Positions 13,169 to 25,868 of a stretch of 64,000 nucleotides of DNA are shown here, in pieces. The stretch is taken from positions 32,001 to 96,000 of IMG/VR virus record IMGVR_UViG_2901201504_000001. One strand, given 5' to 3'. The position numbers were made by a program, and so were the translations under genes. The notes under the pieces are model-generated. The model made no database searches, had not been told where the DNA came from, and saw nothing but the letters and a program-made list of their open reading frames with translations. Each line of letters starts with the position of its first letter. Within the stretch, counting starts at the first letter, position 1. Source of the DNA: a virus (taxonomy: Duplodnaviria > Caudoviricetes).

Positions 13169-15706
13169 CTAAACCGTTACAGACTTTTTAAATCGATACT
13201 CTCTAACCCTTTCTCTCGTTTGCTTTCTTTGAATTTCCTTCCAACAATGAGCACAATACTGACTTCTATTGTTAATCTTCTTTACACGCTTTCCACATTC
13301 ACTACACTGTATTGTATTCTTTAAGTTTTTTTGCAGGTTTTTAAGAATCACATCTCCAAAGGCTTCCCATAATGTTGTCTTATATTTACTTTTCTTTTCA
13401 ATATATAAGTATTTTATCAACATATCAGCAACTTGATTAATATTGCTATTTATTTCTAATAACTTATTTCTCAAATTATCATATATGTATATATTTGAGT
13501 CACTATGTTTAGATGATTCATGGTTTCTGAGTAATATATCTTTATTTCTATCGAATTCCTCATATGTCACTATGATTCTATCATCCACTTCTATGTCTTT
13601 ATCTAGAAAGAGTTTTTCTGGATTAAGAGTACCTGCAATATCTTCATATTTGATCCTTTTATTAGGAATAATTCTATTCAGTTTATTTACTGTACTATGA
13701 TTTATTTTAACGACATTTTTCTTTTTCTTATCTTTTGCGTAAACAAAGAAATGAGGAACTTTATCTTTTATATAATCTGAAATTTTTTCATCTACATGTT
13801 TCGGTCTAGTTGGCATAAACAATGTCTTAGCAAAATCAATAGTAAAGTTATTCTCCATACAAAGCCATTTGATAACATCTAGATTCACATTATCACTATT
13901 CCATATCTTAGTGATATTATTACTAATTTCTCCAATGTTGGCCTTATAAGCAAGAATCAAACTGTTATAGATATTTTCACTATTAATTTTCTGTGCTTCA
14001 GCTTTAGACATTTCATAATAAAGAGGAACTATGCCTTTCATGTTACGCTCTGCTACATTAATAAATGTCTCGTCTTGAATAACTAACGCTTTATCTCCAT
14101 CGTTATCGAATTGTAGCATCTTACTAATTGGATCAAGAACACTTGTGTAAATGCCATTTGTAATAAACCATTCAGTTTTATTTTCATCAATGACATTATT
14201 CTTAATCGCATGTTCACGATAGAGGTGAGGAGATCGTAATACATCTACTTTTCCTTCATGAAATAAATTACAGTAAATTTCATTATTATGTAGTAATCCT
14301 TTAGGTTCTTCAATGGCCATGAACAATTTCTCGCAAAATGCATATAAGTCAGGACATAAGAAAGTATACTTACCATTAATATTTAATTTACCTGCCCTTG
14401 CATCCCTTACCATGCTTTTTTTCTTATCTTTAATGGTTTGTTTTGCATGAGCATCATTCAATAGCTCAGGGTATATATATAATCCTCCTTGGAAATAGTT
14501 CTTATTTTTATTATGCTTTGTAGCACCTAATACACGTAACATTGTTTCTTTGTTACTACCTACAGAAAGAATATCATCTATTGTTGATGAGCTAATTTTT
14601 TCTAATTCTTCATCTGTAATATCTGTTAGAGTTTGCAACATTTGATAATTCAACATAGCATCATTGGAAGTATCTTCAACATTTAATTTAGCAGCTTGGC
14701 ATTTATGTTGCTTGAATCTACTTTTATAGTCATCCCAGTCCTCATAATATTTCCACATTTTAAATTGACTTTTAGTAAAAATAATCTGAATATCATCTTC
14801 AACAATATCCCATTCTTTATTATAGATATCGATCACTTTTGTTGAGGAATCGTCTAAAGATGAGAATTTTTTAAAGTCAAATGGTACTAACAAACCTTTA
14901 AGGAAGGGGAGTCTACACATAAAAGACTTTTTAGACTTAGAAGGCAGAATCATCCCACATCCGTCTGTATGTTCAATTTCAATATCCATAGTCTGTCTAG
15001 TTATCTCATATGTATCACGATTAATATAGTCAACTTCACTATAAACATCGGTAGCTAAATCAGGTACTACTATAGCTTTATCAATATTAAATCCTTTCCA
15101 TTCATTCGTTGCACTGTTGGTTAATGCTAGATAGCTTAAATATTTATTTACATTACTACCGCCCTTAGAATTGATTTCTTCCACAGATAAACCACATGTC
15201 AAAGAATCTTTATGTTTCAACCATACTGACTCTTTTATGAAAACACCTTTCTTTGTTCTAATTTGACCAGCAGAACTAGAGAAATAAACATAATGTTCTC
15301 CATTGTAATCAAAACCATCCGAAATTAAATCATTCAATACTTTATAGTGATAAGCTCTGATAGTAATAATGTCCATTGTGATTGTATTTTCTTTTGCTCC
15401 GATTGTTCTCGATAATGATGATTCAAAAATAGAAATTACATTGGAATCCTTAAGGTTGTCTTGGTTTAATCTACGGACATTCCTGTTCAGGTTGAATTCC
15501 TTTCTTAGATTTTTCTTCAATTCATTAACACGCTTATTAATTAATTTTATTTTTATCTTCTCTGACTTGTTTAATTTTTTCTTATGGATCAAGTATCTCA
15601 TCATTAAATTATGTATGAATGCTTCTTTTTTATTATAAAAAGCAGAAGTATCTACTGAGTATATGTAAACTTGTTTGTCCAATCCCTTAGCCATTAAATC
15701 CCTCAC
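13169..15706 (-). CDS. yonO: YonO-type single-subunit DNA-dependent RNA polymerase
   Basis: 845 aa; TDGCG, RSPHL and catalytic QFDNDGD (DxDGD); C-terminal CxxC..CxxC; upstream of the late genes. Confidence 0.9.
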   Translation of the reverse strand: MRDLMAKGLDKQVYIYSVDTSAFYNKKEAFIHNLMMRYLIHKKKLNKSEKIKIKLINKRVNELKKNLRKEFNLNRNVRRLNQDNLKDSNVISIFESSLSRTIGAKENTITMDIITIRAYHYKVLNDLISDGFDYNGEHYVYFSSSAGQIRTKKGVFIKESVWLKHKDSLTCGLSVEEINSKGGSNVNKYLSYLALTNSATNEWKGFNIDKAIVVPDLATDVYSEVDYINRDTYEITRQTMDIEIEHTDGCGMILPSKSKKSFMCRLPFLKGLLVPFDFKKFSSLDDSSTKVIDIYNKEWDIVEDDIQIIFTKSQFKMWKYYEDWDDYKSRFKQHKCQAAKLNVEDTSNDAMLNYQMLQTLTDITDEELEKISSSTIDDILSVGSNKETMLRVLGATKHNKNKNYFQGGLYIYPELLNDAHAKQTIKDKKKSMVRDARAGKLNINGKYTFLCPDLYAFCEKLFMAIEEPKGLLHNNEIYCNLFHEGKVDVLRSPHLYREHAIKNNVIDENKTEWFITNGIYTSVLDPISKMLQFDNDGDKALVIQDETFINVAERNMKGIVPLYYEMSKAEAQKINSENIYNSLILAYKANIGEISNNITKIWNSDNVNLDVIKWLCMENNFTIDFAKTLFMPTRPKHVDEKISDYIKDKVPHFFVYAKDKKKKNVVKINHSTVNKLNRIIPNKRIKYEDIAGTLNPEKLFLDKDIEVDDRIIVTYEEFDRNKDILLRNHESSKHSDSNIYIYDNLRNKLLEINSNINQVADMLIKYLYIEKKSKYKTTLWEAFGDVILKNLQKNLKNTIQCSECGKRVKKINNRSQYCAHCWKEIQRKQTRERVREYRFKKSVTV

Positions 15707-16116: not shown

Positions 16117-16180
16117 GATATTACATAATCTTTGAATATCTTTAAGAATCTACAAAGATTTTTAAAAATCTATACAGATA
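16117..16180. repeat. 10-bp phased GATW/WATC array (candidate tubC centromere/operator)
   Basis: GATA, AATC, TATC, AATC, GATT, AATC, GATA at 16117, 16127, 16137, 16147, 16157, 16167, 16177. Confidence 0.55.
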
Positions 16181-16193
16181 CAGGAGGATTTTC

Positions 16194-16475
16194 ATGGATT
16201 ACTTTGTTCACACTGTACTCAAATCTAGTCAAGAAGAGTTAGTATTGCTCAATGTATTAAATGAACATCAGGCTTACAATACTTATACATTTCTAACAAA
16301 GCAACAAATCAAAGACCAATCACATTTATCCGAATCAATTGTAAGAAAAACTCTGCTCATATTAGAAAGACTTCAATTTATTAATTCAATTTGCACGAAC
16401 AAAACAAAAGGGTACTATCTTACGAATCATGGTTTATTAGCAATTGAAAAAATCCTAGAGGGAGTGAATGAATAA
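16194..16475 (+). CDS. Winged-helix DNA-binding protein (TubR-like adaptor)
   Basis: wHTH-like LTKQQIKDQSHLSESIVRKTLLILERLQFI...GYYLTNHG; TAATG-coupled to the tubulin gene. Confidence 0.65.
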   Translation: MDYFVHTVLKSSQEELVLLNVLNEHQAYNTYTFLTKQQIKDQSHLSESIVRKTLLILERLQFINSICTNKTKGYYLTNHGLLAIEKILEGVNE

Positions 16476-17581
16476 TGATAGGTGTAATTGGTTTAGGTCA
16501 AGCTGGAGGAAATGTTGCAAACTTATTTGCCGAAAGAGGAATTCAAACTGCTGCAATTAACTATTCATCCAAAGACCTAGAGACTTGTAATCACATAGAA
16601 AACAAATTAAAACTCATTGGATCAGAAGGAGTTGGTAAACAAAGAGAGGAAGCAATTCGACTATTTCACAACAATTATGAATCAGCTTTAATATTCATTA
16701 AAGAGCATTTCTCACAACCTTCTGTTGAATTAATCTTTATTGTTTTTAGTGCGGCAGGAGGGAGTGGAAGTGGTATAGCTTCAATATTATCCGAGCTACT
16801 ACTCAACGAAATGCAGGAAAAAACTTTCATAATTTGCCCCATCATTCCTACTGTCTCAGAGTGCATTACAGCGCAATTAAACACTCTAGATACATTGACT
16901 AGCCTAAGTGAATTAGAAGCCTGTATCATTCCATTGGACAACGAGAAGGGGATGTCTAAGGGCGCTAAAGACAAATCTTACCACTTTATAAATCAGACGT
17001 TTGTAGACACTATTTTAACGATAGCTGACTACACTAATATGCATTCAATCACAGGAAACTTTGATGCAAGGGACTTGCGTACATTGTTGTCTACAACTGG
17101 ATTCTGCTCAATTGGACAATGTGACATTTCACATCTAAAGAATGAAGACATATCCGTAAATATCGAAGTTGTATCTAAAAAAGTAAGAACATCGCATTTT
17201 GAGTCAATCTTCACATCTCCTTCATTGGAACAAATAGTACGATCAGGCTTAATATTTGATGGGCAAGAATCATTAATGTATTGTGTCGATCTTGATAAAA
17301 TTCACAATCAATTTCCCAATCAACCTTTGGATGTTTTTGAAGGCTATTATACAGAAGAAAAAGGGAGAGTAATATCTATTTACTGTGGTTTAAAATTTAA
17401 CAGTACAAGATTAAATCAGATTGAAAAATTAGCAACTGAACGAATAGAATCTTTCCAAAACACTCATCAAAGCACATCTATATCCATAAAAAGACCAACT
17501 CTTAAAAGCCCAATTATGTCATCTAAACCTAAGAAATCGCTATCTGATATTCTAAATAAACACAAGAAAACTAATATATAA
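16475..17581 (+). CDS. Tubulin/FtsZ-superfamily GTPase (TubZ/PhuZ-like)
   Basis: GLGQAGGN, GSEGVGK, signature AAGGSGSG, PLDN, T7-loop-like NFDARD, basic C-terminal tail. Confidence 0.85.
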   Translation: MIGVIGLGQAGGNVANLFAERGIQTAAINYSSKDLETCNHIENKLKLIGSEGVGKQREEAIRLFHNNYESALIFIKEHFSQPSVELIFIVFSAAGGSGSGIASILSELLLNEMQEKTFIICPIIPTVSECITAQLNTLDTLTSLSELEACIIPLDNEKGMSKGAKDKSYHFINQTFVDTILTIADYTNMHSITGNFDARDLRTLLSTTGFCSIGQCDISHLKNEDISVNIEVVSKKVRTSHFESIFTSPSLEQIVRSGLIFDGQESLMYCVDLDKIHNQFPNQPLDVFEGYYTEEKGRVISIYCGLKFNSTRLNQIEKLATERIESFQNTHQSTSISIKRPTLKSPIMSSKPKKSLSDILNKHKKTNI

Positions 17582-17597
17582 AAATAGTAAATTATCA

Positions 17598-17732
17598 TTA
17601 CCCGTCAGTTTACCTGATACTTTATTTTCATTACCTAATCGTTACCCATTATCATTACCAGTTGATTTTACAATATCGGTAATTACCCAAACAGCAGGTA
17701 ATGGAAAATCGGTAAGTATAAAACGTTGGTAA
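17598..17732. repeat. Cluster of TTACC direct repeats followed by inverted GGTAA copies
   Basis: TTACC at 17598, 17610, 17631, 17642, 17655, 17683; GGTAA at 17678, 17697, 17711, 17728. Confidence 0.6.
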
Positions 17733-17845: not shown

Positions 17846-18022
17846 TTATTCAATGATTCCTACTTCATGTAAAAATGTTAAAAGTTCATGTAATCTTTTT
17901 CTGCTCATTCCTGTTTTTTCTATTACATAATCAGAGGTGAATTCCAACTTCTCTTCAAACTTAGGAGGCTCGTATGTACCCCATGAACCAATTGACATAT
18001 GTCCACGTACATTTTCACTCAT
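17846..18022 (-). CDS. 58-aa HTH-like protein missed by the ORF track
   Basis: MSENVRGH...SDYVIEKTGMSRKRLHELLTFLHEVGIIE; RBS GGGAGG. Confidence 0.55.
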   Translation of the reverse strand: MSENVRGHMSIGSWGTYEPPKFEEKLEFTSDYVIEKTGMSRKRLHELLTFLHEVGIIE

Positions 18023-18165
18023 TTACCTTTGCCTCCCTTGTTCGTTCTATCTAAAAAATCATTTACTGCATCTCTTGGATCTTGTTTGTAAATAAATGAC
18101 ATGTTTTCCAACTCCGTTTATAATTATCTTAATAGTAGTCTTACCTCAAGGAGTTGACGTTATAC

Positions 18166-18597
18166 ATGAAAGAAAAAGTTACTTTAACCGTAGATATAAC
18201 TATGAAAAACTATGTAAATATTAAAAATCTCATTGGTTATTGTAAGTACAACAACTTGATTATCAGCGAAAATTTACCTACCACTGACGAAGAAATAATT
18301 AATGCTGCACTATTTTCTTACTTTGAGAAGATTGAAACAATCGTAAGATATTATAATGTGGATAAATCAGCATTGAATTTAGAAGAAGGAACAAAAATTA
18401 AAAATAGGATAAAAGAAATATTAAAGATGACTGGTATGAAACAGAAAGAATTATCTGAATTAACAGGTATTGAAACAGCTACATTATCTGCAATGTTATC
18501 TAACAGAAACCAACCATCAATCGAAAACTTTTTGCGTATATGGACTGTGTTAGGGTGTCCACCAATTGAAGAAGTATTCTACAGAGAGAAGGAGTGA
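18166..18597 (+). CDS. XRE-family HTH regulator (C-terminal HTH)
   Basis: NRIKEILKMTGMKQKELSELTGIETATLSAMLSNRNQPS. Confidence 0.75.
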   Translation: MKEKVTLTVDITMKNYVNIKNLIGYCKYNNLIISENLPTTDEEIINAALFSYFEKIETIVRYYNVDKSALNLEEGTKIKNRIKEILKMTGMKQKELSELTGIETATLSAMLSNRNQPSIENFLRIWTVLGCPPIEEVFYREKE

Positions 18598-18642
18598 TCC
18601 TTCTTTTTTGTTGTTTGTAGATTTTTTTAAAATTTATTATAC

Positions 18643-18670
18643 ATAGTACAATCAACGTCATCCATATACT
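18643..18670 (+). promoter_or_regulatory. Possible SigE/SigK-type sporulation promoter
   Basis: ATA-N17-CATATACT upstream of RBS GGAGG and the membrane-protein operon. Confidence 0.3.
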
Positions 18671-18687
18671 TAATCAAACAACCGGAG

Positions 18688-18879
18688 GTGATTAACATGA
18701 TGTTTGCAACTGTATTAGCTTTGAAAATTGGAGCATTAGGAAGTGTGGGTGTAGGAATTGCAAGTGCATTAAAATTATTTCATAACTACGAATGGAAACA
18801 ATCATCTAAGAAAGGTGTGAAATATGATGACAACTATGACAGTGAATCTTTGCGTGAAAAAGCAAGACGAATTAATTAA
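18688..18879 (+). CDS. Small single-TM protein
   Basis: Hydrophobic N-terminus; RBS GGAGGTG. Confidence 0.5.
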   Translation: MINMMFATVLALKIGALGSVGVGIASALKLFHNYEWKQSSKKGVKYDDNYDSESLREKARRIN

Positions 18880-19393
18880 ATACAATGATTTTAATCAATT
18901 TGTTTTTCGACAAACTGAGGAGAGTACCAATGTAAATTTTCATTTACCAACAATAAAGGAGGTGAAAAGTTTACCAAAGAAAACGAAAAAGAAATTTCAC
19001 AAAATTGCAGTATCATTTCTAGCAACTGTAGCAACTTACATGGTATCCGCATCAAAATCAATGGCAAGTACTGTACTGCCATCAACATCAAACGACATCA
19101 TAAACATTCCGGCAACAGCACAGGGACTTCCTCCAGAACTTATGCAGATATTCGGAACAGGTCTAGTAATATTAGTAGCTGTAGCAGTTCTACTTTGCAT
19201 GGCAATGTTGATGGGAGCAGGCCTATTAAGAGCAATGAGGAAGAAAAAAGAAGCGAGCGAATGGACAGGAGACATCATAAAAGGATTAGTTCAAGTACTT
19301 TTAGCACCACCAATCATATTTTTAATCTTCTATATAGCAACAATCCTGTTCACCGGTTCAAGTTGGTTCATCAATCCTTTCGTAATACGCTAA
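18824..19393 (+). CDS. Membrane protein with pilin/VirB2-like C-terminal hairpin
   Basis: Signal-like segment ending SMA, then two long hydrophobic helices joined by basic loop RAMRKKKE. Confidence 0.45.
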   Translation: MMTTMTVNLCVKKQDELIKYNDFNQFVFRQTEESTNVNFHLPTIKEVKSLPKKTKKKFHKIAVSFLATVATYMVSASKSMASTVLPSTSNDIINIPATAQGLPPELMQIFGTGLVILVAVAVLLCMAMLMGAGLLRAMRKKKEASEWTGDIIKGLVQVLLAPPIIFLIFYIATILFTGSSWFINPFVIR

Positions 19394-20496
19394 AAAAGGT
19401 AGCTATCCCATTTGCAGTATTATCTACATCCTCACTATTATTTACATTAAAAGCTTCTGCTGAATCTTTTTGGGAAAGAGGGGATATCACAAAACATGGT
19501 TTATTTAATAAAGAGAATATCTTAGAACGTGGCGGATCAATTCAGGAATTTAAAGATGTTACTGAAAAGCTAGGTATGATTCTCGATAAAATCATTAAAG
19601 GAATGGATTGGATTGCATACGCTTGGTATCATCCTGATGAAATGTCTATTAAACTCCTAACATCTATCTACGAAGTACTAACTAAAGTCGTACTAACTAC
19701 CCCTACATTCATTTTCAATAATACTTTCATTCAAAGCATTTCATTAAAATTCTCATTAATTAGCATTGTTATAGTCACTGCTTTAACTATCGTTGAATCA
19801 ATTATGCAAATTACAAGACAAAAACATACGAAAATCAAAACAATTATAAAACGCTATTTTGGAGTGGTTACTGTTACTGGTTTTGCTCCATTCTTATTTG
19901 AAAAAGGCTTTGACTTTATTAACAAATTAACTTCATCAATTATTTCATTAGGTGGAGATTTCAGCAGAGCTACTACCACTGTGCAAACTATGGGAATGGC
20001 AAATCTGGATGTGTTAATTATGTTTGCATTTGATATTACTCTTTTAGCTATGTTAATTCCTATAATGCTTCAAAACGGTAGACGATGGTGGGATTTAATG
20101 TGTTTATCTGCAACTGCACCAATAGCCGGAGTCGCATTTGTATTTGATCGATACAGACATTACTTTGATTCCTGGTGGAGTTCGGTAAAACGTTTATCAA
20201 TGATTCAATTAGTGTATGGTGTGTTTATCACTTTACTAGGTGTATTTATTTTTGCCACTAGAGATATGGTCACAGGTTGGGAATTGATTATCAAATTACT
20301 TATAGCAGCAGGAGGAATGTGGAGATTATTAAATCCACCAAGAATAGTTCTGAATTTAACACAAGGAGACGGTAAAGATGTATTCAACATGTATGACGAC
20401 TATAAATCTGGAGCTAAAAAAGTCATTGATACTGTTACATTCAAAAACTTTAGACCTGTCAATTTCATCAAAAGTAAATTAAAAAAGAATAAATAG
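19195..20496 (+). CDS. Polytopic membrane protein (VirB6/TrbL-like); true start probably near 19363
   Basis: Signal peptide ending ASA, ~6 hydrophobic helices, RWWDLMCLSATAPIA...FDSWW pattern reminiscent of Gram-positive VirB6-like proteins. Confidence 0.5.
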   Translation: MHGNVDGSRPIKSNEEEKRSERMDRRHHKRISSSTFSTTNHIFNLLYSNNPVHRFKLVHQSFRNTLKKVAIPFAVLSTSSLLFTLKASAESFWERGDITKHGLFNKENILERGGSIQEFKDVTEKLGMILDKIIKGMDWIAYAWYHPDEMSIKLLTSIYEVLTKVVLTTPTFIFNNTFIQSISLKFSLISIVIVTALTIVESIMQITRQKHTKIKTIIKRYFGVVTVTGFAPFLFEKGFDFINKLTSSIISLGGDFSRATTTVQTMGMANLDVLIMFAFDITLLAMLIPIMLQNGRRWWDLMCLSATAPIAGVAFVFDRYRHYFDSWWSSVKRLSMIQLVYGVFITLLGVFIFATRDMVTGWELIIKLLIAAGGMWRLLNPPRIVLNLTQGDGKDVFNMYDDYKSGAKKVIDTVTFKNFRPVNFIKSKLKKNK

Positions 20497-20508
20497 TGAG
20501 GTGTTAGC

Positions 20509-20622
20509 ATGATAACCTTATTAGTTTGCAATACAATAATGCTCATCATAAATTCATTTGTCTTATATGTAAACAGTGACTTAATAAGCAAGGTGATGGA
20601 AGATGATAAGAATAGGTACTAA
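20509..20622 (+). CDS. 37-aa single-TM peptide
   Basis: MITLLVCNTIMLIINSFVLYV..., RBS GAGGTG, overlaps the ftsK-like start. Confidence 0.45.
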   Translation: MITLLVCNTIMLIINSFVLYVNSDLISKVMEDDKNRY

Positions 20623-22843
20623 ACCAAATAAAACCATTCAGAAAAACAGCAATTTTACGTATAAATTAGATGTATTTCATGACAAATTGATACAAAAGTA
20701 TATGGATTCCGACCATATTTCAACTAACATATACGGTTTTGAAATACTATCAAATTCTGAAATATACACTTTTACACCTACCTTAGATCGATTAGAATAC
20801 TCAATTGTAGAACAAGATTTATCCACTTATTTTAACTCAAATACTTTGCAATTATATGAAATACAAATGAAAAATCCTTTGTTTCTTCCTATATATAATA
20901 AATTCCAACAATCTCTCATAGAGCAAATATTCAATATCCAACAAAGCTATCCTGTTCTCATCCAAATCTTAATACAAAAAATAAATAAATGGAGAGATAA
21001 TGCAATCTCACAGTATGAAGAATTCTTGAAGGGGAATGATTATCCATCTGAAAATAGGATTCTTAGAAATACACAAAGCAAGATCATAAATGTGCTTAAT
21101 AAATTCGCTAACTTCCAAGTGAAAAGAAAACCGATTCAAGACGTAGAAGATAAAATTCTTAGTGATAACTTTAAGATTGAAATACGCTTTGCTATAGAAG
21201 ACAATGAGGGAGAATTTGAGTTAACAATTAATAAATTTCTAAAACAATATGATTACTATAATCAATTAGAGCTAGTCAAAATATATGATGTAGATAGTCA
21301 AATACAATTGATTAAAAATAGACAAATGAAGTCATATACACTTAATCAATTGTCCACTTCAGAAATTAATTCTCTCTTTTCATCTGATAAGTCAGATATT
21401 ACTCCTAAACAAGAAGTAATGATAACGTCCAATAGAAAAAGTCAACAAACAAGTAATCCTGAACAATATAATCATTTACTTGATGTGCTACCGAAATATG
21501 AAAAACAATCAAATGATATTGATAATGAAATAGTTGATAGATTGATACAAAGCTTCAAACGTACAAAAATAACGAACAAATTAATAAAAATAGGTGAGGT
21601 AGCAAGAGGAGCAACATTGCAAAAAGTTACTCTAAAAATCCCTAATGATATAGTCTATACGAACATTGAGAAGAATCTAAAGAATATACAGGCCACATTG
21701 GGTAATGATGCAATTAGTATGGAAATTAGCGATACTCCTGACTCTGTAGATTTCTATATTCCATGTAGTGAAAGAGAAGTAGTTTATTTACGAAATGTAT
21801 TAGAATCAGACGAATTTATTGAGCAAGTAACTGAATTAACTTTGCCATTAATATTAGGTGAAGATAGCATAGGTAAACCATTGCTTTCTGATTTAGCAGA
21901 GTTAAAGCATATTCTTATAGCAGGAGCAACTGGTAGTGGTAAATCAGTATTTCTTAATGCATTGATACTTACTATGATTATGTACAAAGAACCTGGGGAA
22001 TTAAAGCTGATACTTATTGATCCAAAGAAAGTAGAACTAGTGCCATTTAGTAAGTATCCTCAAGTTACCTTTGTAGACGATATGAATAAAGCAACAAATA
22101 CATTTGAGACATTAATCAATGAGATGAATAAACGTTACGATACTTTTGCAAGTAAAGGATGTAGGAATATTGCTCAATACAATTCTAAGTTAGACATAAA
22201 AGTACCATACTTAGTTTGTATTGTAGACGAATTATCAGATTTAATGGATACGCATGGTAATGAAATTGAATCACATATTATAAGATTAGGTCAGAAAGCT
22301 AGAGCAGCAGGTATACATTTAATATTATGTACACAGAAACCTTCAGTAGATGTTATTACAAGCAGGATAAAGAGTAATTTACCAAGCGCCATTAGCTTTA
22401 GATTGAAAGCACAGAGCGACTATAGAACTGTATTTGGTAAAGGTATTCCTTATCATCTATTAGGAAAAGGTGATGGAGTAGCGATGTTAGAAGGGAATAG
22501 TAAAGAGTTTATTAGGTTTCAATCACCTGTCATTGATCTTGATGACAATACAACCGTAGATATTATTGATAAGATAGCAGATACCTATGAAGGAATTCAA
22601 CATGAACCAATAAAAATTATTGAAACTGAAGAACCGATTGATAAACTAAAGCGTATTATAGCTAGTACAGGTGAGACTAGGATATCTGAATTACAAAAAG
22701 AGATGAAAATAAGGATTAATCTAGTCTCAGAATTAATGAAGCAGTTGGTTACCGAGGAATGGGTAATTAAAGAAGGAAAAGGATATAAGATAATTGTTAG
22801 TGAGAATGAGTTAGATAAATGGAGGGAAGTTGCTGAACAGTGA
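20603..22843 (+). CDS. FtsK/SpoIIIE-family DNA translocase
   Basis: HILIAGATGSGKS, LIDPKKVEL, IVDELSDLM, ARAAGIHLILCTQKP, LLGKGD; C-terminal wHTH; no N-terminal TM. Confidence 0.9.
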   Translation: MIRIGTKPNKTIQKNSNFTYKLDVFHDKLIQKYMDSDHISTNIYGFEILSNSEIYTFTPTLDRLEYSIVEQDLSTYFNSNTLQLYEIQMKNPLFLPIYNKFQQSLIEQIFNIQQSYPVLIQILIQKINKWRDNAISQYEEFLKGNDYPSENRILRNTQSKIINVLNKFANFQVKRKPIQDVEDKILSDNFKIEIRFAIEDNEGEFELTINKFLKQYDYYNQLELVKIYDVDSQIQLIKNRQMKSYTLNQLSTSEINSLFSSDKSDITPKQEVMITSNRKSQQTSNPEQYNHLLDVLPKYEKQSNDIDNEIVDRLIQSFKRTKITNKLIKIGEVARGATLQKVTLKIPNDIVYTNIEKNLKNIQATLGNDAISMEISDTPDSVDFYIPCSEREVVYLRNVLESDEFIEQVTELTLPLILGEDSIGKPLLSDLAELKHILIAGATGSGKSVFLNALILTMIMYKEPGELKLILIDPKKVELVPFSKYPQVTFVDDMNKATNTFETLINEMNKRYDTFASKGCRNIAQYNSKLDIKVPYLVCIVDELSDLMDTHGNEIESHIIRLGQKARAAGIHLILCTQKPSVDVITSRIKSNLPSAISFRLKAQSDYRTVFGKGIPYHLLGKGDGVAMLEGNSKEFIRFQSPVIDLDDNTTVDIIDKIADTYEGIQHEPIKIIETEEPIDKLKRIIASTGETRISELQKEMKIRINLVSELMKQLVTEEWVIKEGKGYKIIVSENELDKWREVAEQ

Positions 22844-22903
22844 CTTCTCTTATTTTTGTATAGTAGGTGTATATATGTGAAGGTGAAAAATTGGATTTAA
22901 AAT

Positions 22904-22931: not shown

Positions 22932-23627
22932 CTATCTATAAACTGATTTAGGAATATTTGCTTTTGGGTTTCCTACAGCATAAGGTGCTAATTCATATTC
23001 TTGATAAATCACACTTATTCCTGTATTAGTGAAAATGAAAGTTGTACCCTTATTTAGTTTTATGTCCTTAACAGTAATATCATCAAACATGATATCTTGT
23101 TTTTTGAGAAAATTATAGATATGTTGCTTTGTCTTTTGTGCCTTAGCTGGCTTAACTACATCTGGTATTGTAACTAGTTTACCAGTTTTGATGTTAAAGT
23201 TATATGATTGAACAAATCTACCGCCATGAACTCCTCCAGTGTACATATCAGTATAGACTAACACACTAATATAATTACTGTCTTGGTAAGCTAGTTTGAA
23301 TGTAGTTTTATAACGATACTGACATGAAAATGGAAATTCACTACAATATTCTTCATCATAATTCTCTTCCATTGAATTCATTAGTGCGTTATAACCATCA
23401 TAGTGTCCTTTTCCCACTTGACGAAAGAAGAGATTGATATTGTGTTGTATTTGAGTATTTTTAATTCCTGATAATTTAGGATAAGCAATGTTTTTGTTAC
23501 CTTTGTAATACACCGTTTCTGTCTTAATAGGATTAGAAGCTGCATTAGCCTGTATTACTGAAGTAGAAAATAGACCAATTGCAAATACTAACAGAATAAT
23601 AACTCTTAGAAATTTGATGTTCTTCAT
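22932..23627 (-). CDS. Secreted DUF4163/DUF3298 (RsiV/PdaC-like) protein
   Basis: Signal peptide ending ANA; YTGGVHG, YNFNIKTGK, YQEYELAPYAVG. Confidence 0.7.
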   Translation of the reverse strand: MKNIKFLRVIILLVFAIGLFSTSVIQANAASNPIKTETVYYKGNKNIAYPKLSGIKNTQIQHNINLFFRQVGKGHYDGYNALMNSMEENYDEEYCSEFPFSCQYRYKTTFKLAYQDSNYISVLVYTDMYTGGVHGGRFVQSYNFNIKTGKLVTIPDVVKPAKAQKTKQHIYNFLKKQDIMFDDITVKDIKLNKGTTFIFTNTGISVIYQEYELAPYAVGNPKANIPKSVYR

Positions 23628-23739
23628 TATGTATCCTCCTTTTTTATTATAAACTATTACAGTATATAGTAAAAATGTCCTAAATAAAAGATATATGTTT
23701 ATAAAAAATAGATTTATAAAGAAGAGTCTATCTATACTA

Positions 23740-24760
23740 TGACTCGAAGCTGAAAATAACGACACTCGAACGATGGTGTATAAAGTGATAAAAATGTAGT
23801 GTTTATAAGAGATTTCGGTAGTTTAGGTGAGATTGAAAGGTGACTCGATAGGCTGAACTCGTAGAAACGTTGATGTACCAATGGTTTGAGCGTGTTTTTG
23901 GAGTGGAATTAGTGAAATTTTAGTGAGTTGAGTAGTGGAAAAGTCAATGTTTATAAGGGGTTTACGAGTCACTTTTCGAGTGTAATTTAGGTGAAAATGA
24001 GGTGATTTTAATTCTGAGTGAGATTATGGGAATAGGGTGATAAAATATAATTTAGTGATTAGGAAAATTATTGTGGTGTGGAAATGGAAGTGCTACGGCT
24101 CTATACAGAACATATATTCCTATTTTAGATGTTTAATAACCCCCGGTAAACCCTTTATTTATAAGGAAAAACGTACATATAATTCTAATTATATGTAACT
24201 TTTAATATTTGGACATATAAATAGCTACATTACACAATTACATATCTTCAAAATAGATAACTAGGATATTTTCATGTATAAAATTTTAAAAAATTAATTC
24301 ATCATTCCAATTTTTACAGCGTTTATTTATATATTTTAGTCCCAGAATCGGCTATAACATAAAGCGGCAAGCCAAAGTATTATAATTATAAACTAAAAGT
24401 AAAGTAATACTAAACTTATCAAAACCAATAATAAATAGTATTATAAAGTTAATATTACTATTACACGTAGTTATCAAAACTACATATAAACTCATCACTT
24501 ATCTATCAATATCACATCCAACTATTCACCTTATCAAAATATACATCAATTGAAATTATAATATAGATAACCATTGTTAATTAAACTAATCAATAGTCAT
24601 AAACAAATTTATATATATTCCCATAAACTACTAACAACCTGTGGATAACATGTGTATAACTTGTTTATATCATGTTAGTAAACTATAACCACACTACAAT
24701 ATAAACAAAAATAAAATAACGTAAAATACCAAAAATAACTATACCAAACTACTAATATAT
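23740..24760. other. Long non-coding region with G-to-C skew switch, repeats and DnaA boxes (candidate origin or packaging site)
   Basis: G-rich 23760-24100 then C/A-rich; ACTCG repeats; TGTGGATAA at 24640 and TGTGTATAA at 24651. Confidence 0.45.
24640..24659 (-). promoter_or_regulatory. Two tandem DnaA boxes
   Basis: Reverse complements TTATCCACA and TTATACACA match TTATNCACA. Confidence 0.65.
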
Positions 24761-24827
24761 GGTATAATTGTATTATAAGTAAGGAGGTGAAAATAGTTGA
24801 ATTTATCATACGAAAGGAGGTGAAGAA

Positions 24828-24995
24828 GTGGAGTTAATGTTAGTATTGAGCCTTTTGCTTAACATACTAACTCTTATAGAAAAGTTACTCAACATACGAA
24901 AACTATACAACGACAACAAGAAAATAAACTACAAAGAGGATAAAGAAGAGCAAAAGGAAAAACCTTCTACACGCTGCGAACGTTATAGAAGGTGA
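24828..24995 (+). CDS. YonT-like type I toxin (55 aa), missed by the ORF track
   Basis: GTG start after AAGGAGGTG; TM helix ending LTLIEK plus charged tail ending RYRR, similar to recalled YonT. Confidence 0.6.
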   Translation: MELMLVLSLLLNILTLIEKLLNIRKLYNDNKKINYKEDKEEQKEKPSTRCERYRR

Positions 24996-25050
24996 TGAAT
25001 AGTGTAGAAAGGGAACATAAGCTTCATGAACTTACATAAGTTCCCTTTCA
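24950..25050 (-). ncRNA. Putative SR6-like antisense antitoxin RNA (boundaries approximate)
   Basis: Minus-strand TTGCAT-N18-(TG)TAGTAT promoter at ~25056-25085; hairpins GAAAGGGAAC/GTTCCCTTTC and CCTTCTA/TAGAAGG. Confidence 0.4.
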
Positions 25051-25277
25051 AATTAATACTAACATATTCCACAATAAATATGCAAATATTATCCAAATTA
25101 TCAAACCTTGTTTTAATAGTCTTTTCAATTGTCTACATTGTCACACGGATAAACTCTGACACAAATACAACATTTTATATAATTATGGATATACTCTTAG
25201 GTATAACGATCATTCTAGTAGTTTATACATCGTATCTACTGCATAAAGTTAACAAGCAGCGAAATAGTAAGCGTTAA
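25026..25277 (+). CDS. YoyJ-like two-TM protein
   Basis: 83 aa, two hydrophobic helices, directly after the yonT-like gene. Confidence 0.5.
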   Translation: MNLHKFPFKLILTYSTINMQILSKLSNLVLIVFSIVYIVTRINSDTNTTFYIIMDILLGITIILVVYTSYLLHKVNKQRNSKR

Positions 25278-25499
25278 ACAACAAACGTGATTATGGGACG
25301 ATTATAGTCATTATGGTCGTTCCTTTTTCTTTAAACATTAATAAATAAAAGTTAATTAAATTAAAATAATAGTATACATCACTACCGAAGTATTGTATAA
25401 TTAATACATAAGATAAAGAGAGGAATTAATAAGCATTTAACTAAAATATCTCAATGTCTTACAATTAATACTAAATTAATTTAAAAGGAGTTAATTAAA

Positions 25500-25868
25500 A
25501 TGAAAAAACTTATCACATCTCTAACTATTCTTATTGTACTATCTGTTATTGCTATTACATACAACATTAATCAACCACAAGCTACTGTACAATTACAACA
25601 AAGTACTGGGCAAATCACAACAACTAAACAAGAAACACAATCTCAACCTATCACAGAGTCATACATCATCACTGAAGTAGTACAACATAACAATAAAGAT
25701 ACAGAATACTATGGTCAATCAACAACTGGAGATACAGGTATTTACTTCACTTCTGATTATATCAACTTAATTGATTCACTTGAAGAAGGCGATATAATAA
25801 CGGCACACTTTGAGAATGAATATGATGATAGCTTACTATATGTTCAGAAAGGAGATAATAAACATTAA
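25500..25868 (+). CDS. Secreted/membrane-anchored hypothetical protein
   Basis: N-terminal signal/TM, Q/T-rich linker, own SigA promoter. Confidence 0.6.
   Translation: MKKLITSLTILIVLSVIAITYNINQPQATVQLQQSTGQITTTKQETQSQPITESYIITEVVQHNNKDTEYYGQSTTGDTGIYFTSDYINLIDSLEEGDIITAHFENEYDDSLLYVQKGDNKH

Follow-up and report, generated by a model that had tools for sequence, protein, structure and literature searches.

A 'DNA translocation operon' (orfs 200-207) was described in 2012 in the Bacillus thuringiensis phage 0305phi8-36 by Pathria and coworkers; in the available part of that paper its genes are assigned to a relaxase-like protein (orf200), a coupling ATPase devoid of transmembrane (TM) segments (orf201), a VirB6 homolog (orf203) and an MreB-like protein (orf207), deletion of orfs 200-207 is reported to cause no growth defect in the laboratory, and cell-to-cell DNA translocation in biofilms is proposed (PMC3357382). 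The lack of a growth defect fits a conditional function. An FtsK/SpoIIIE homolog has also been noted in Bastille-like and gamma-like phages, where, in the accessible text, sporulation or DNA translocation was speculated upon (PMC4528723; PMC4113786); spoIIIE has been counted among the sporulation genes carried by phages, spore entrapment being suggested in the part of the source at hand (PMC10294663), and for pBtic360-type megaplasmids, which carry an FtsK-like gene, self-transfer is suggested in the sections available (PMC6199540). The focus of the present analysis is a five-gene block, g1-g5, found in a 64,000-nucleotide stretch of viral DNA (the window) which corresponds to bases 32001-96000 of the 137,119-bp IMG/VR record IMGVR_UViG_2901201504_000001, classed as a provirus; its G+C content is about 30%. 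On balance, the block probably serves large Bacillus mobile elements as an accessory module, under its own regulation, for the translocation of double-stranded DNA (dsDNA), that is, as a membrane-docked translocon.

The block is positioned at the change of transcription to the plus strand; up to about 16 kb the genes lie on the minus strand, and among them are those for a virion protein, the portal and the large terminase. The nature of the element is indicated by an 845-amino acid (aa) protein (13169-15706, minus strand), which shares 59% identity with a protein of SPbeta, phi3T and SPR and whose counterpart in phage Goe14 is annotated as the YonO single-subunit RNA polymerase, the protein itself being without a Pfam match and belonging to PHROG 8308, of 'unknown function'; given this YonO-like protein of SPbeta and phi3T, the element is an SPbeta-like temperate phage of a Bacillaceae host. 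No nearly identical DNA was found in collections of phages and plasmids. The components of the block are the following.

18583..18608, plus strand: terminator-like hairpin after the gene of an XRE-family regulator (hairpin search)
18697..18879, plus strand: g1, 60 aa, one TM segment (residues 1-25) and a basic C-terminal tail; ribosome-binding site (RBS) GGAGGTG; DUF7394, 31.1 bits against a cut-off of 27; phrog_3796
18824..19393, plus strand: g2, 189 aa, propilin-like, two C-terminal TM helices (102-139, 149-184); phrog_3528, E 1e-31
19363..20496, plus strand: g3, 377-aa polytopic VirB6/TrbL-like protein, start uncertain (TTG at 19363); phrog_3750, E 7e-72
20509..20622, plus strand: g4, 37-aa peptide with one TM segment and a strong RBS, overlapping the start of g5 (open reading frame (ORF), RBS, hydrophobicity)
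20603..22843, plus strand: g5, 746-aa ATPase without TM segments, composed of a family-specific N-domain (~1-270), a linker, FtsK alpha and beta (~336-640) and a gamma-like winged helix-turn-helix (wHTH; ~676-730); phrog_3551, E 1e-190
22822..22851, plus strand: terminator-like hairpin at the end of g5 (hairpin search)

All five ORFs are present on the plus strand, with coordinates refined from RBS and homologs; g1 and g2 overlap by 56 nucleotides (nt), g2 and g3 by 31 nt and g4 and g5 by 20 nt, and the unit is bracketed by the two hairpins. A first-pass annotation of the window had proposed an overlapping five-gene operon next to a tubulin, and this description was borne out. These are not chance ORFs, because g1, g2, g3 and g5 have Pfam or PHROG family matches and because the gene order recurs: one scan of species-representative genomes returned nine loci (L004-L012), all Bacillaceae and prophage-related, and in all nine the order XRE gene, g2, g3, g5 is kept, with g1 in 7 and a g4-like peptide in 3. 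The order g1-g2-g3-(g4)-g5 is also found in the phages SIOphi, Hobo and Goe14 and in the plasmid pBFR_2.

Relationship to the 0305phi8-36 operon

The 0305phi8-36 operon shows the succession of an actin-like partition gene, ORF204, ORF203, the 39-aa ORF202 and the TM-less ATPase ORF201, the same order as in the window; ORF203 matches g3 (tblastn E 6e-17), ORF204 is homologous to g2 (hhalign 97% probability, E 7.6e-11), and the N-domain of ORF201 is homologous to that of g5 (hhalign 96% probability, E 4.4e-9). The differences concern the motor, the relaxase and the companions of the operon. The motor of ORF201 is assigned to the AAA_10 type in the available text (PMC3357382), whereas g5 carries FtsK alpha/beta and a gamma-like wHTH; in the Pfam scan carried out here, ORF201 gave no family at E <= 0.01. 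The phage 0305phi8-36 has, after the ATPase, a relaxase-like gene of the MobC/Replic_Relax type, ORF200 (Replic_Relax, E 6e-5 with Pfam), of which there is no homolog in the window's genome (no tblastn match over 137 kb); moreover, its partition gene is actin-like and that of the window is a TubZ, while the XRE gene and g1 are present here. By sequence comparison, then, the window cassette is a relative of the 0305phi8-36 operon with a different motor and no relaxase.

Neither a pilin-like protein nor an FtsK-bearing version is described in the part of the 2012 paper available (PMC3357382), and in the accessible text of the papers on Bastille-like phages the 'sporulation-related SpoIIIE homolog' is treated as a host-like sporulation gene, as an ATPase alone, with no membrane genes and no link to type IV secretion systems (T4SS) described (PMC4528723; PMC4113786). 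The Bastille-like carriers are lytic myoviruses, while the element studied here is a temperate SPbeta-like phage. A literature search for phage FtsK proteins with VirB6/TrbL and pilin-like partners yielded none beyond Pathria 2012, supplements being outside the search (the additional files of PMC4528723 may list neighbouring phams). The FtsK-bearing variant is a new form of a kind of operon which was described informatically in 2012.

The FtsK-type ATPase g5

The motor domain of g5 is readily recognized: PF01580 (FtsK_SpoIIIE) is matched at residues 396-582 with E 2e-47 and 162 bits (cut-off 24), the Walker motifs are intact, GSGKS and the DE box being discernible when g5 is aligned with 2ius, and phmmer aligns g5 to the FtsK structures of E. 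coli and P. aeruginosa (E 8e-58) from query residue 336 (chain residue 70), that is, from upstream of the P-loop. The last 96 residues resemble a wHTH, with matches to MarR (E 7e-4) and, below the cut-off of 30.6 bits, to FtsK_gamma (PF09397, E 0.0068, 16.5 bits). Among 57 scanned members of the g5 family, FtsK_SpoIIIE is found in 55, FtsK_alpha in 8 (the window g5 is not listed among them) and a strong FtsK_gamma in 3 (2.6e-26). No hydrophobic segment is present in g5, so that the protein has no N-terminal polytopic membrane anchor of the FtsK/SpoIIIE type; the first-pass view of a soluble FtsK motor is supported, with a wHTH-like region at the C-terminus. A chromosomal-type FtsK motor with alpha and gamma domains implies dsDNA as the substrate, and not single-stranded DNA (ssDNA) led by a relaxase.

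It is here that a function other than DNA transport has to be weighed, namely protein secretion of type VII (T7SS) or T4SS kind, superinfection exclusion, or an FtsK-like device for defence or host takeover. It is suggested by the PHROG filing of the family and by g5 itself, which partially matches EssC/EccC as well as FtsK-like domains in SspH and mad8; the PHROG category is 'moron, auxiliary metabolic gene and host takeover'; these matches are limited to the shared motor, the score against the EssC model TIGR03928 is 106 bits with a cut-off of 778, g5 has a single P-loop ATPase domain and not three, and DNA-translocase alpha and gamma domains occur in its family. The T7SS reading was rejected, and the defence reading likewise; PADLOC returned nothing specific and left the membrane proteins unmatched, the block being no known defence system. 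As a whole, a function other than DNA transport is very improbable.

The N-domain had been listed as unknown in the first-pass annotation, and by sequence no Pfam family is matched over residues ~1-335. A profile of the domain retrieved only 107 representatives among 1.84 billion sequences, nearly all of 650-850 aa and of one architecture, and against PDB sequences it gave chance-level matches only. Structure searches point in one direction. When residues ~3-272 are searched in the ESM Atlas, clusters of DUF8128 are found (template-modelling score by query 0.57-0.63), a domain which in those clusters stands alone or is fused to domains of the TrwB, TraG and HerA types, i.e. T4SS coupling ATPases; a structure model of the N-domain (predicted local distance difference test, pLDDT, 65), searched against the PDB with Foldseek, has as its best match TrwK, the VirB4 of R388 (E 0.011-0.09, prob 0.6-0.97). 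In the viral library BFVD, six proteins match at E <= 0.001, including gp155 and gp156 of Bacillus phage G, proteins of phages JL and Slash, of differing lengths, and an unnamed 802-aa protein (the length of 0305phi8-36 gp201). One N-domain joined to different motors across Bacillus phages fits a docking domain. The models weakly suggest, therefore, a resemblance of the g5 N-domain to the N-domains of T4SS ATPases (DUF8128, TrwK/VirB4).

The membrane proteins g3 and g2

For g3, an ORF of 433 aa starting at 19195 was considered and discarded as too long, as it runs back into g2; the shorter form is preferred because of the phrog_3750 match and of database homologs of 355-400 aa. Hydrophobic segments and the positions of basic loops suggest a signal peptide, a putative N-domain on the outside and some five TM helices, followed by a conserved tail which is basic and cytoplasmic; this is the topology of VirB6. 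Among 90 homologs in the database, 10 come with a precomputed assignment to PF19597 (TrbL_4), and several bear the NCBI name 'TrbL family'; the TrbL_4 model is passed by 3 of the 7 homologs scanned (38-46% identical to g3), with 36.5-38.8 bits against a cut-off of 27, and a further one, at 26.7 bits, lies just under it. A profile of 42 family members has a single PDB match, TrwI, the VirB6 of plasmid R388 (E 0.3). The first-pass annotation had suggested a fold comparison of the membrane ORFs with Foldseek, and this, run on an AlphaFold (AF2) model of g3 built from the family alignment (pLDDT 68, predicted template-modelling score 0.58), placed a T4SS-type fold on top: the best 6 PDB matches are all R388 TrwI/VirB6 chains (E 0.03-0.17, prob 0.94-1.0, template-modelling score by target 0.42-0.56), followed by noise of the G protein-coupled receptor type. 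The agreement of three partly independent, weak lines (TrbL_4 in homologs, profile to TrwI, Foldseek to TrwI) is the reason for regarding g3 as VirB6/TrbL-like, with a modelled fold which weakly resembles the solved TrwI. The earlier guess of a VirB6-like protein is in this way supported in part, by the fold matches and by the homologs, though not by any Pfam match of g3 itself, and the scores are weak.

The alignment of g2 (22 sequences) comprises a conserved leader of about 57 aa, a signal-like helix ending at a conserved A-x-A (A81 invariant), a GLPPEL motif, two TM helices with an R-KKKEA-EW loop and a WF-PF C-terminus, an order of features which corresponds to the anatomy of the VirB2/TrbC propilins. 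g2 itself has no Pfam match, and its feature leads in the Atlas to T4SS_pilin/TrbC (score 0.83-0.84) are leads only; its homolog ORF204 matches T4SS_pilin (PF18895) with E 9.7e-4 and 19.6 bits, under the cut-off of 26.6. The designation of g2 as a pilin-like, two-helix protein can accordingly be kept as regards its propilin anatomy and its homology to ORF204, while the link to T4SS_pilin is sub-threshold and passes through ORF204 only.

Comparison with conjugative systems

VirB4 is the signature ATPase of the T4SS, whose coupling proteins include those of the FtsK-like TcpA/Orf21 type. With the conjugative T4SS of Gram-positive bacteria the cassette shares a VirB6/TrbL-like polytopic protein, a two-TM propilin-like protein, an ATPase of the FtsK-HerA superfamily with a T4SS-ATPase-like N-domain and, in many relatives, a wall hydrolase; it differs from them in that no VirB4 and no relaxase were found and no VirB8-like gene was recognized, and in that its carriers are phages and plasmids typed non-mobilizable. 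Over the whole 137-kb record, PF03135 (VirB4) has no match, PF12846 matches g5 only, below its cut-off, and the relaxase models PF03432, PF02486 and PF13814 have no match, other MOB families being outside the search; the negative for PF13814 is weak, because its control gave no match anywhere. Within these searches, and with the tblastn search with ORF200 reported above, the earlier statement that neither VirB4 nor a relaxase is recognizable stands.

The comparison bears on the possibility of a conjugation-like, particle-independent transfer of DNA between neighbouring cells in chains or biofilms, the 'propagation by translocation' idea of Pathria and coworkers, akin to the dsDNA transfer by TraB in Streptomyces. 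TraB has a TM domain of its own and works together with Spd proteins; the features in common with g5 are an FtsK-like motor, a C-terminal wHTH and the absence of a relaxase. T4SS-like membrane parts together with an M23 wall hydrolase (in 9 of 15 loci, see below) suggest envelope crossing, a relaxase-like gene is present in the homologous 0305phi8-36 operon, for which transfer was proposed by its authors in the available text (PMC3357382), and self-transfer was suggested, in the sections at hand, for the pBtic360-type megaplasmids with their FtsK-like gene (PMC6199540). Against such a transfer stand the failure to find VirB4, a relaxase or VirD4 here, the typing of all 13 plasmid carriers as non-mobilizable, the strictly lytic life of the myoviruses which make up most carriers, whose donor cell dies, the score of g5 against the NCBIfam model plasmid_TraB (57 bits, cut-off 800) and the absence of a clt-like array (8-bp repeats) near g5. 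On these grounds cell-to-cell transfer is unlikely.

Distribution and partition gene neighbours

A tblastn search with g5 gave 373 phage records, with identities below 60%, and in 160 of these the match spans 80% of the length or more; 248 of the 373 are Bacillus phages, and the closest phage relatives are Bastillevirinae (34-37% identity over 92-99% of the length). g3 was found in 162 phage records, 160 of which are Bacillus phages, and the phage carriers of the block are mostly lytic Bastillevirinae. Thirteen plasmid records carry g3 (11 from Bacillus, 1 from Niallia, 1 from Arthrobacter), and the 10 best plasmid matches are plasmids of the B. cereus group of 188-364 kb. g5 is always co-encoded with g1, the propilin-like g2 and the VirB6/TrbL-like g3, and often with g4. 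SPbetaL2 has no such block within 12 kb of yonO, where Goe14 has it, which makes the block an accessory cassette.

A side observation concerns PLSDB CP053689.1, a 250-kb plasmid labelled Arthrobacter citreus, in which a g3 relative (27% identity, E 1e-23) is the sole match outside Bacillota; the record may be mislabelled, or the plasmid may be a true outlier.

Upstream of the cassette the window contains a pair of partition genes.

16194..16475, plus strand: TubR-like small winged-helix protein, 93 aa (weak wHTH Pfam matches only); its stop overlaps the start of tubZ
16475..17581, plus strand: TubZ-type GTPase of the tubulin/FtsZ family, 368 aa, cytomotive partition protein (PF00091, E 1.4e-13; phrog_4733 'tubulin PhuZ', E 2e-8)

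The tubulin noticed next to the block in the first-pass annotation is a TubZ. Neighbours were counted in 15 loci, namely the window, L004-L012, SIOphi, Hobo, Goe14, 0305phi8-36 and the megaplasmid locus L013. A cytomotive partition gene lies upstream in 14 of them and is of two unrelated kinds: TubZ in the window and in L007, L009 and L010, an ALP_N actin-like protein in L004, L005, L006, L008, L011, L012, SIOphi, Hobo, Goe14 and 0305phi8-36; in the megaplasmid locus neither kind is present. In 9 of the 15 loci an M23 peptidoglycan peptidase is encoded between the partition gene and the cassette (called with Pfam in L004, L009, L001 and L015, with tblastn in L006, L008 and L012, and by eye in L005 and L010).

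The partition neighbours are one argument for a pump that clears the septum or assists segregation, like SftA or FtsK, without transport through the envelope, the membrane proteins being anchors and TubZ or the actin-like protein the partner. SftA is soluble, as is g5, and the B. subtilis SpoIIIE and SftA belong to the motor family of g5. Besides the two unrelated kinds of partition NTPase adjoining the cassette in 14 of 15 loci, septum clearance is favoured by the size of the carriers (every one listed or examined is a large replicon, with a length from about 120 kb upwards), by a motor closest to chromosomal FtsK and by the solubility shared with SftA. It leaves unexplained the propilin-like protein, the VirB6-like protein and the M23 peptidase; host division is usually irrelevant in lytic growth, and the 0305phi8-36 module is dispensable in the laboratory according to the available text (PMC3357382). 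From SpoIIIE, g5 differs in lacking the 4-TM anchor, in an N-domain unrelated by sequence and in having its own dedicated membrane proteins co-encoded. Septum clearance is, on the whole, unlikely.

A model for the cassette

In the model that we prefer, dsDNA translocation by a membrane-docked translocon, g1-g4 would make up a platform descended from a T4SS inner-membrane core, onto which a g5 hexamer would dock via its N-domain, similar to DUF8128 and to the N-terminal domain of VirB4, so that the FtsK motor would replace the VirB4/VirD4 motors; as dsDNA would be pumped by an FtsK motor, no relaxase would be needed. The wHTH of g5 may read a sequence or an orientation, the partition filament may bring the DNA to the site of translocation, and the operon would be expressed from a dedicated promoter, probably under the adjacent XRE regulator or an alternative sigma factor (see below). 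The target would be a septal membrane and, among septa, possibly the sporulation septum, the DNA of the phage or megaplasmid being loaded into the forespore. Forespore loading is the favoured target, if a doubtful one taken by itself; it is favoured because the cassette is restricted to elements of endospore-forming Bacillaceae, occurs in strictly lytic phages and in plasmids typed non-mobilizable, and is dispensable in the laboratory; cell-to-cell transfer and septum clearance are its serious competitors. The first-pass interpretation is supported in part, its candidate roles, spore entrapment or TraB-like transfer between cells, being hypothetical. The boldest form of the model, in which a T4SS descendant without VirB4 and relaxase, equipped with an FtsK pump, injects its own dsDNA genome across a septum, into the forespore or a neighbour in the chain, aimed by a filament and independent of virions, is unlikely.

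Several observations weigh against this interpretation. Every link to T4SS components rests on weak scores and on models with pLDDT 65-68: the window g3 has no Pfam match even at E <= 10 and no NCBIfam match, neither the g3 model nor that of the g5 N-domain has a PDB match in Foldseek at E <= 0.001, DUF8128 is found by sequence in none of the 57 g5 family members, and the alignment of the N-domain with VirB4 has a template-modelling score by query of 0.25-0.29 only, the aligned part of VirB4 not being shown. As regards sequences that might guide the motor, no clt-type or KOPS-type (FtsK-orienting polar sequences) repeat array was found near g5, and the many strand-skewed 7- and 8-mers switch near genome position 50-55 kb, a switch which coincides with that of the coding strand and is therefore inseparable from codon bias. 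The window cassette lacks an M23 gene, the only M23 domain lying in a 3080-aa frame elsewhere in the genome. Moreover, integrated SPbeta-like prophages enter spores passively with the chromosome, so that forespore loading is not obviously needed, and the model would require dsDNA to pass a VirB6-type platform.

As to the missing hydrolase, a 58-aa ORF with a good RBS lies on the minus strand at 17846-18022, between tubZ and the XRE gene; since an M23 gene occupies this position in 7 of the 9 related loci, it seems that the hydrolase was lost from the window or replaced.

For over a decade the 'SpoIIIE homolog' of Bacillus phages has been noted as a curiosity or as a biocontrol concern, without a mechanism; read as part of a module, it becomes a hypothesis which is genetically testable in B. 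subtilis phages. If dsDNA is indeed moved across a septum, the module would explain the trapping of virulent phages in spores or a particle-free spread, would provide phages with a route of transmission and persistence requiring no virion, and would represent a natural case of a secretion-system core whose engine has been exchanged for a dsDNA pump; if its role is limited to clearing the septum, it would be an ordinary accessory segregation device.

Regulator and promoter region

Two features lie between the partition genes and g1.

18166..18597, plus strand: XRE-family regulator with a C-terminal HTH (HTH_26/HTH_3, E 7e-9); listed from TTG 18154, the ATG at 18166 fitting the homologs better
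18643..18670, plus strand: bipartite promoter-like element ATAGTACAA-N11-CATATACT, 26 nt upstream of the g1 ATG; it contains ATA-N17-CATATACT

The XRE gene is preceded by a sigma-70-like promoter (11 of 12 matches, 18096-18124), and the cassette is immediately preceded by an XRE homolog in all 9 genome loci as well as in the megaplasmid locus L013. Promoters of SigE and SigK have ATA (or AC) at -35 and CATA...T at -10. A promoter of the sporulation type had been proposed for the operon; the pattern is present but not enriched, ATA-N17-CATAYANT occurring 3 times in the window against 1.4 expected, a count reached in 13 of 100 shuffles, so that the SigE-like pattern alone means little. What is conserved is a longer element, ATA[AG][GT]ACAA followed after 11 nt by an ATA-rich, -10-like block, in the spacer between the XRE gene and the operon in 8 of 10 SPbeta-like loci. 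Over the 137-kb genome the 9-mer is counted 18 times, about the (calculated) chance expectation, and for this reason its recurrence in a spacer of about 100 nt is meaningful and the element operon-specific. From this comparison, the bipartite element is predicted to be a real, dedicated promoter or operator of the operon.

It might be read by SigE, by another sigma factor, or by SigA with the aid of the adjacent XRE protein; equally, the ATA[AG][GT]ACAA extension could be the operator of that regulator. The two positions that precede ATA show G/T in 7 of 8 loci and A/C in 8 of 8, in agreement with the -35 of SigE, whereas just two of the 8 conserved elements, those of the window and L012, retain the C of CATA, the other six loci having AATA or AGTA. 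The -10 block may also be read as TATACT, TATAAT or TATCAT, without a SigA -35. The SigE and SigK promoter classes share the -10 and differ at one base of the -35, in the accessible part of the source (PMC517825). No strict pattern of SigK, SigF, SigG or extended -10 SigA was found upstream of g1 in 14 loci, and in SIOphi, Hobo, Goe14 and pBFR_2 the cassette is not preceded by the bipartite element. An alternative -10, GAATACAAT, was dropped after realignment on ATA[AG][GT]ACAA.

In the same region, a 21-nt direct repeat (76% identical; 18073-18093 and 18602-18622) has one copy just ahead of each of the two promoters, that of the XRE gene and that of the operon; the repeat is perhaps an operator common to both, or else due to chance.

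Small genes of the cassette

The g1 protein can be aligned with the small ORFs in the g1 position of the nine loci, 7 of which are detectable by tblastn. Peptides of 34-39 aa similar to g4 occupy the same place in L005, L007, L008, Hobo, Goe14 and 0305phi8-36 (ORF202), and are absent in L004, L006, L009 and L012. In addition, a gene for a TM peptide of 45-47 aa precedes g1 in L005 (9211-9354), L007 (9237-9374) and L008 (9181-9324), and small soluble ORFs lie between g3 and g4 in the same three loci; the small-gene content of the cassette therefore varies.

Flanking genes and repeats

TubZ homologs with 39-41% identity are found in the same position in L007, L009 and L010, preceded in all three by TubR-like homologs. 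Directly upstream of the TubR-like gene lies a period-10 array of AATCTTTAAA (4.5 copies, 16127-16171), and directly downstream of tubZ, at 17591-17662, ATTATCATTACC units are repeated; the array and the units are candidate tubC centromere or iteron sites.

On the other side of the block, the product of a convergent gene (22932-23765, minus strand) is anchored in the membrane and combines a PdaC N-domain with DUF3298, an architecture of the RsiV/PdaC kind; the gene is not kept beside the cassette in the other loci. It is followed, at 23800-25500, by about 1.7 kb of 26-27% G+C with short ORFs only and several small repeats, an A+T-rich region which may be a replication origin or a regulatory region.

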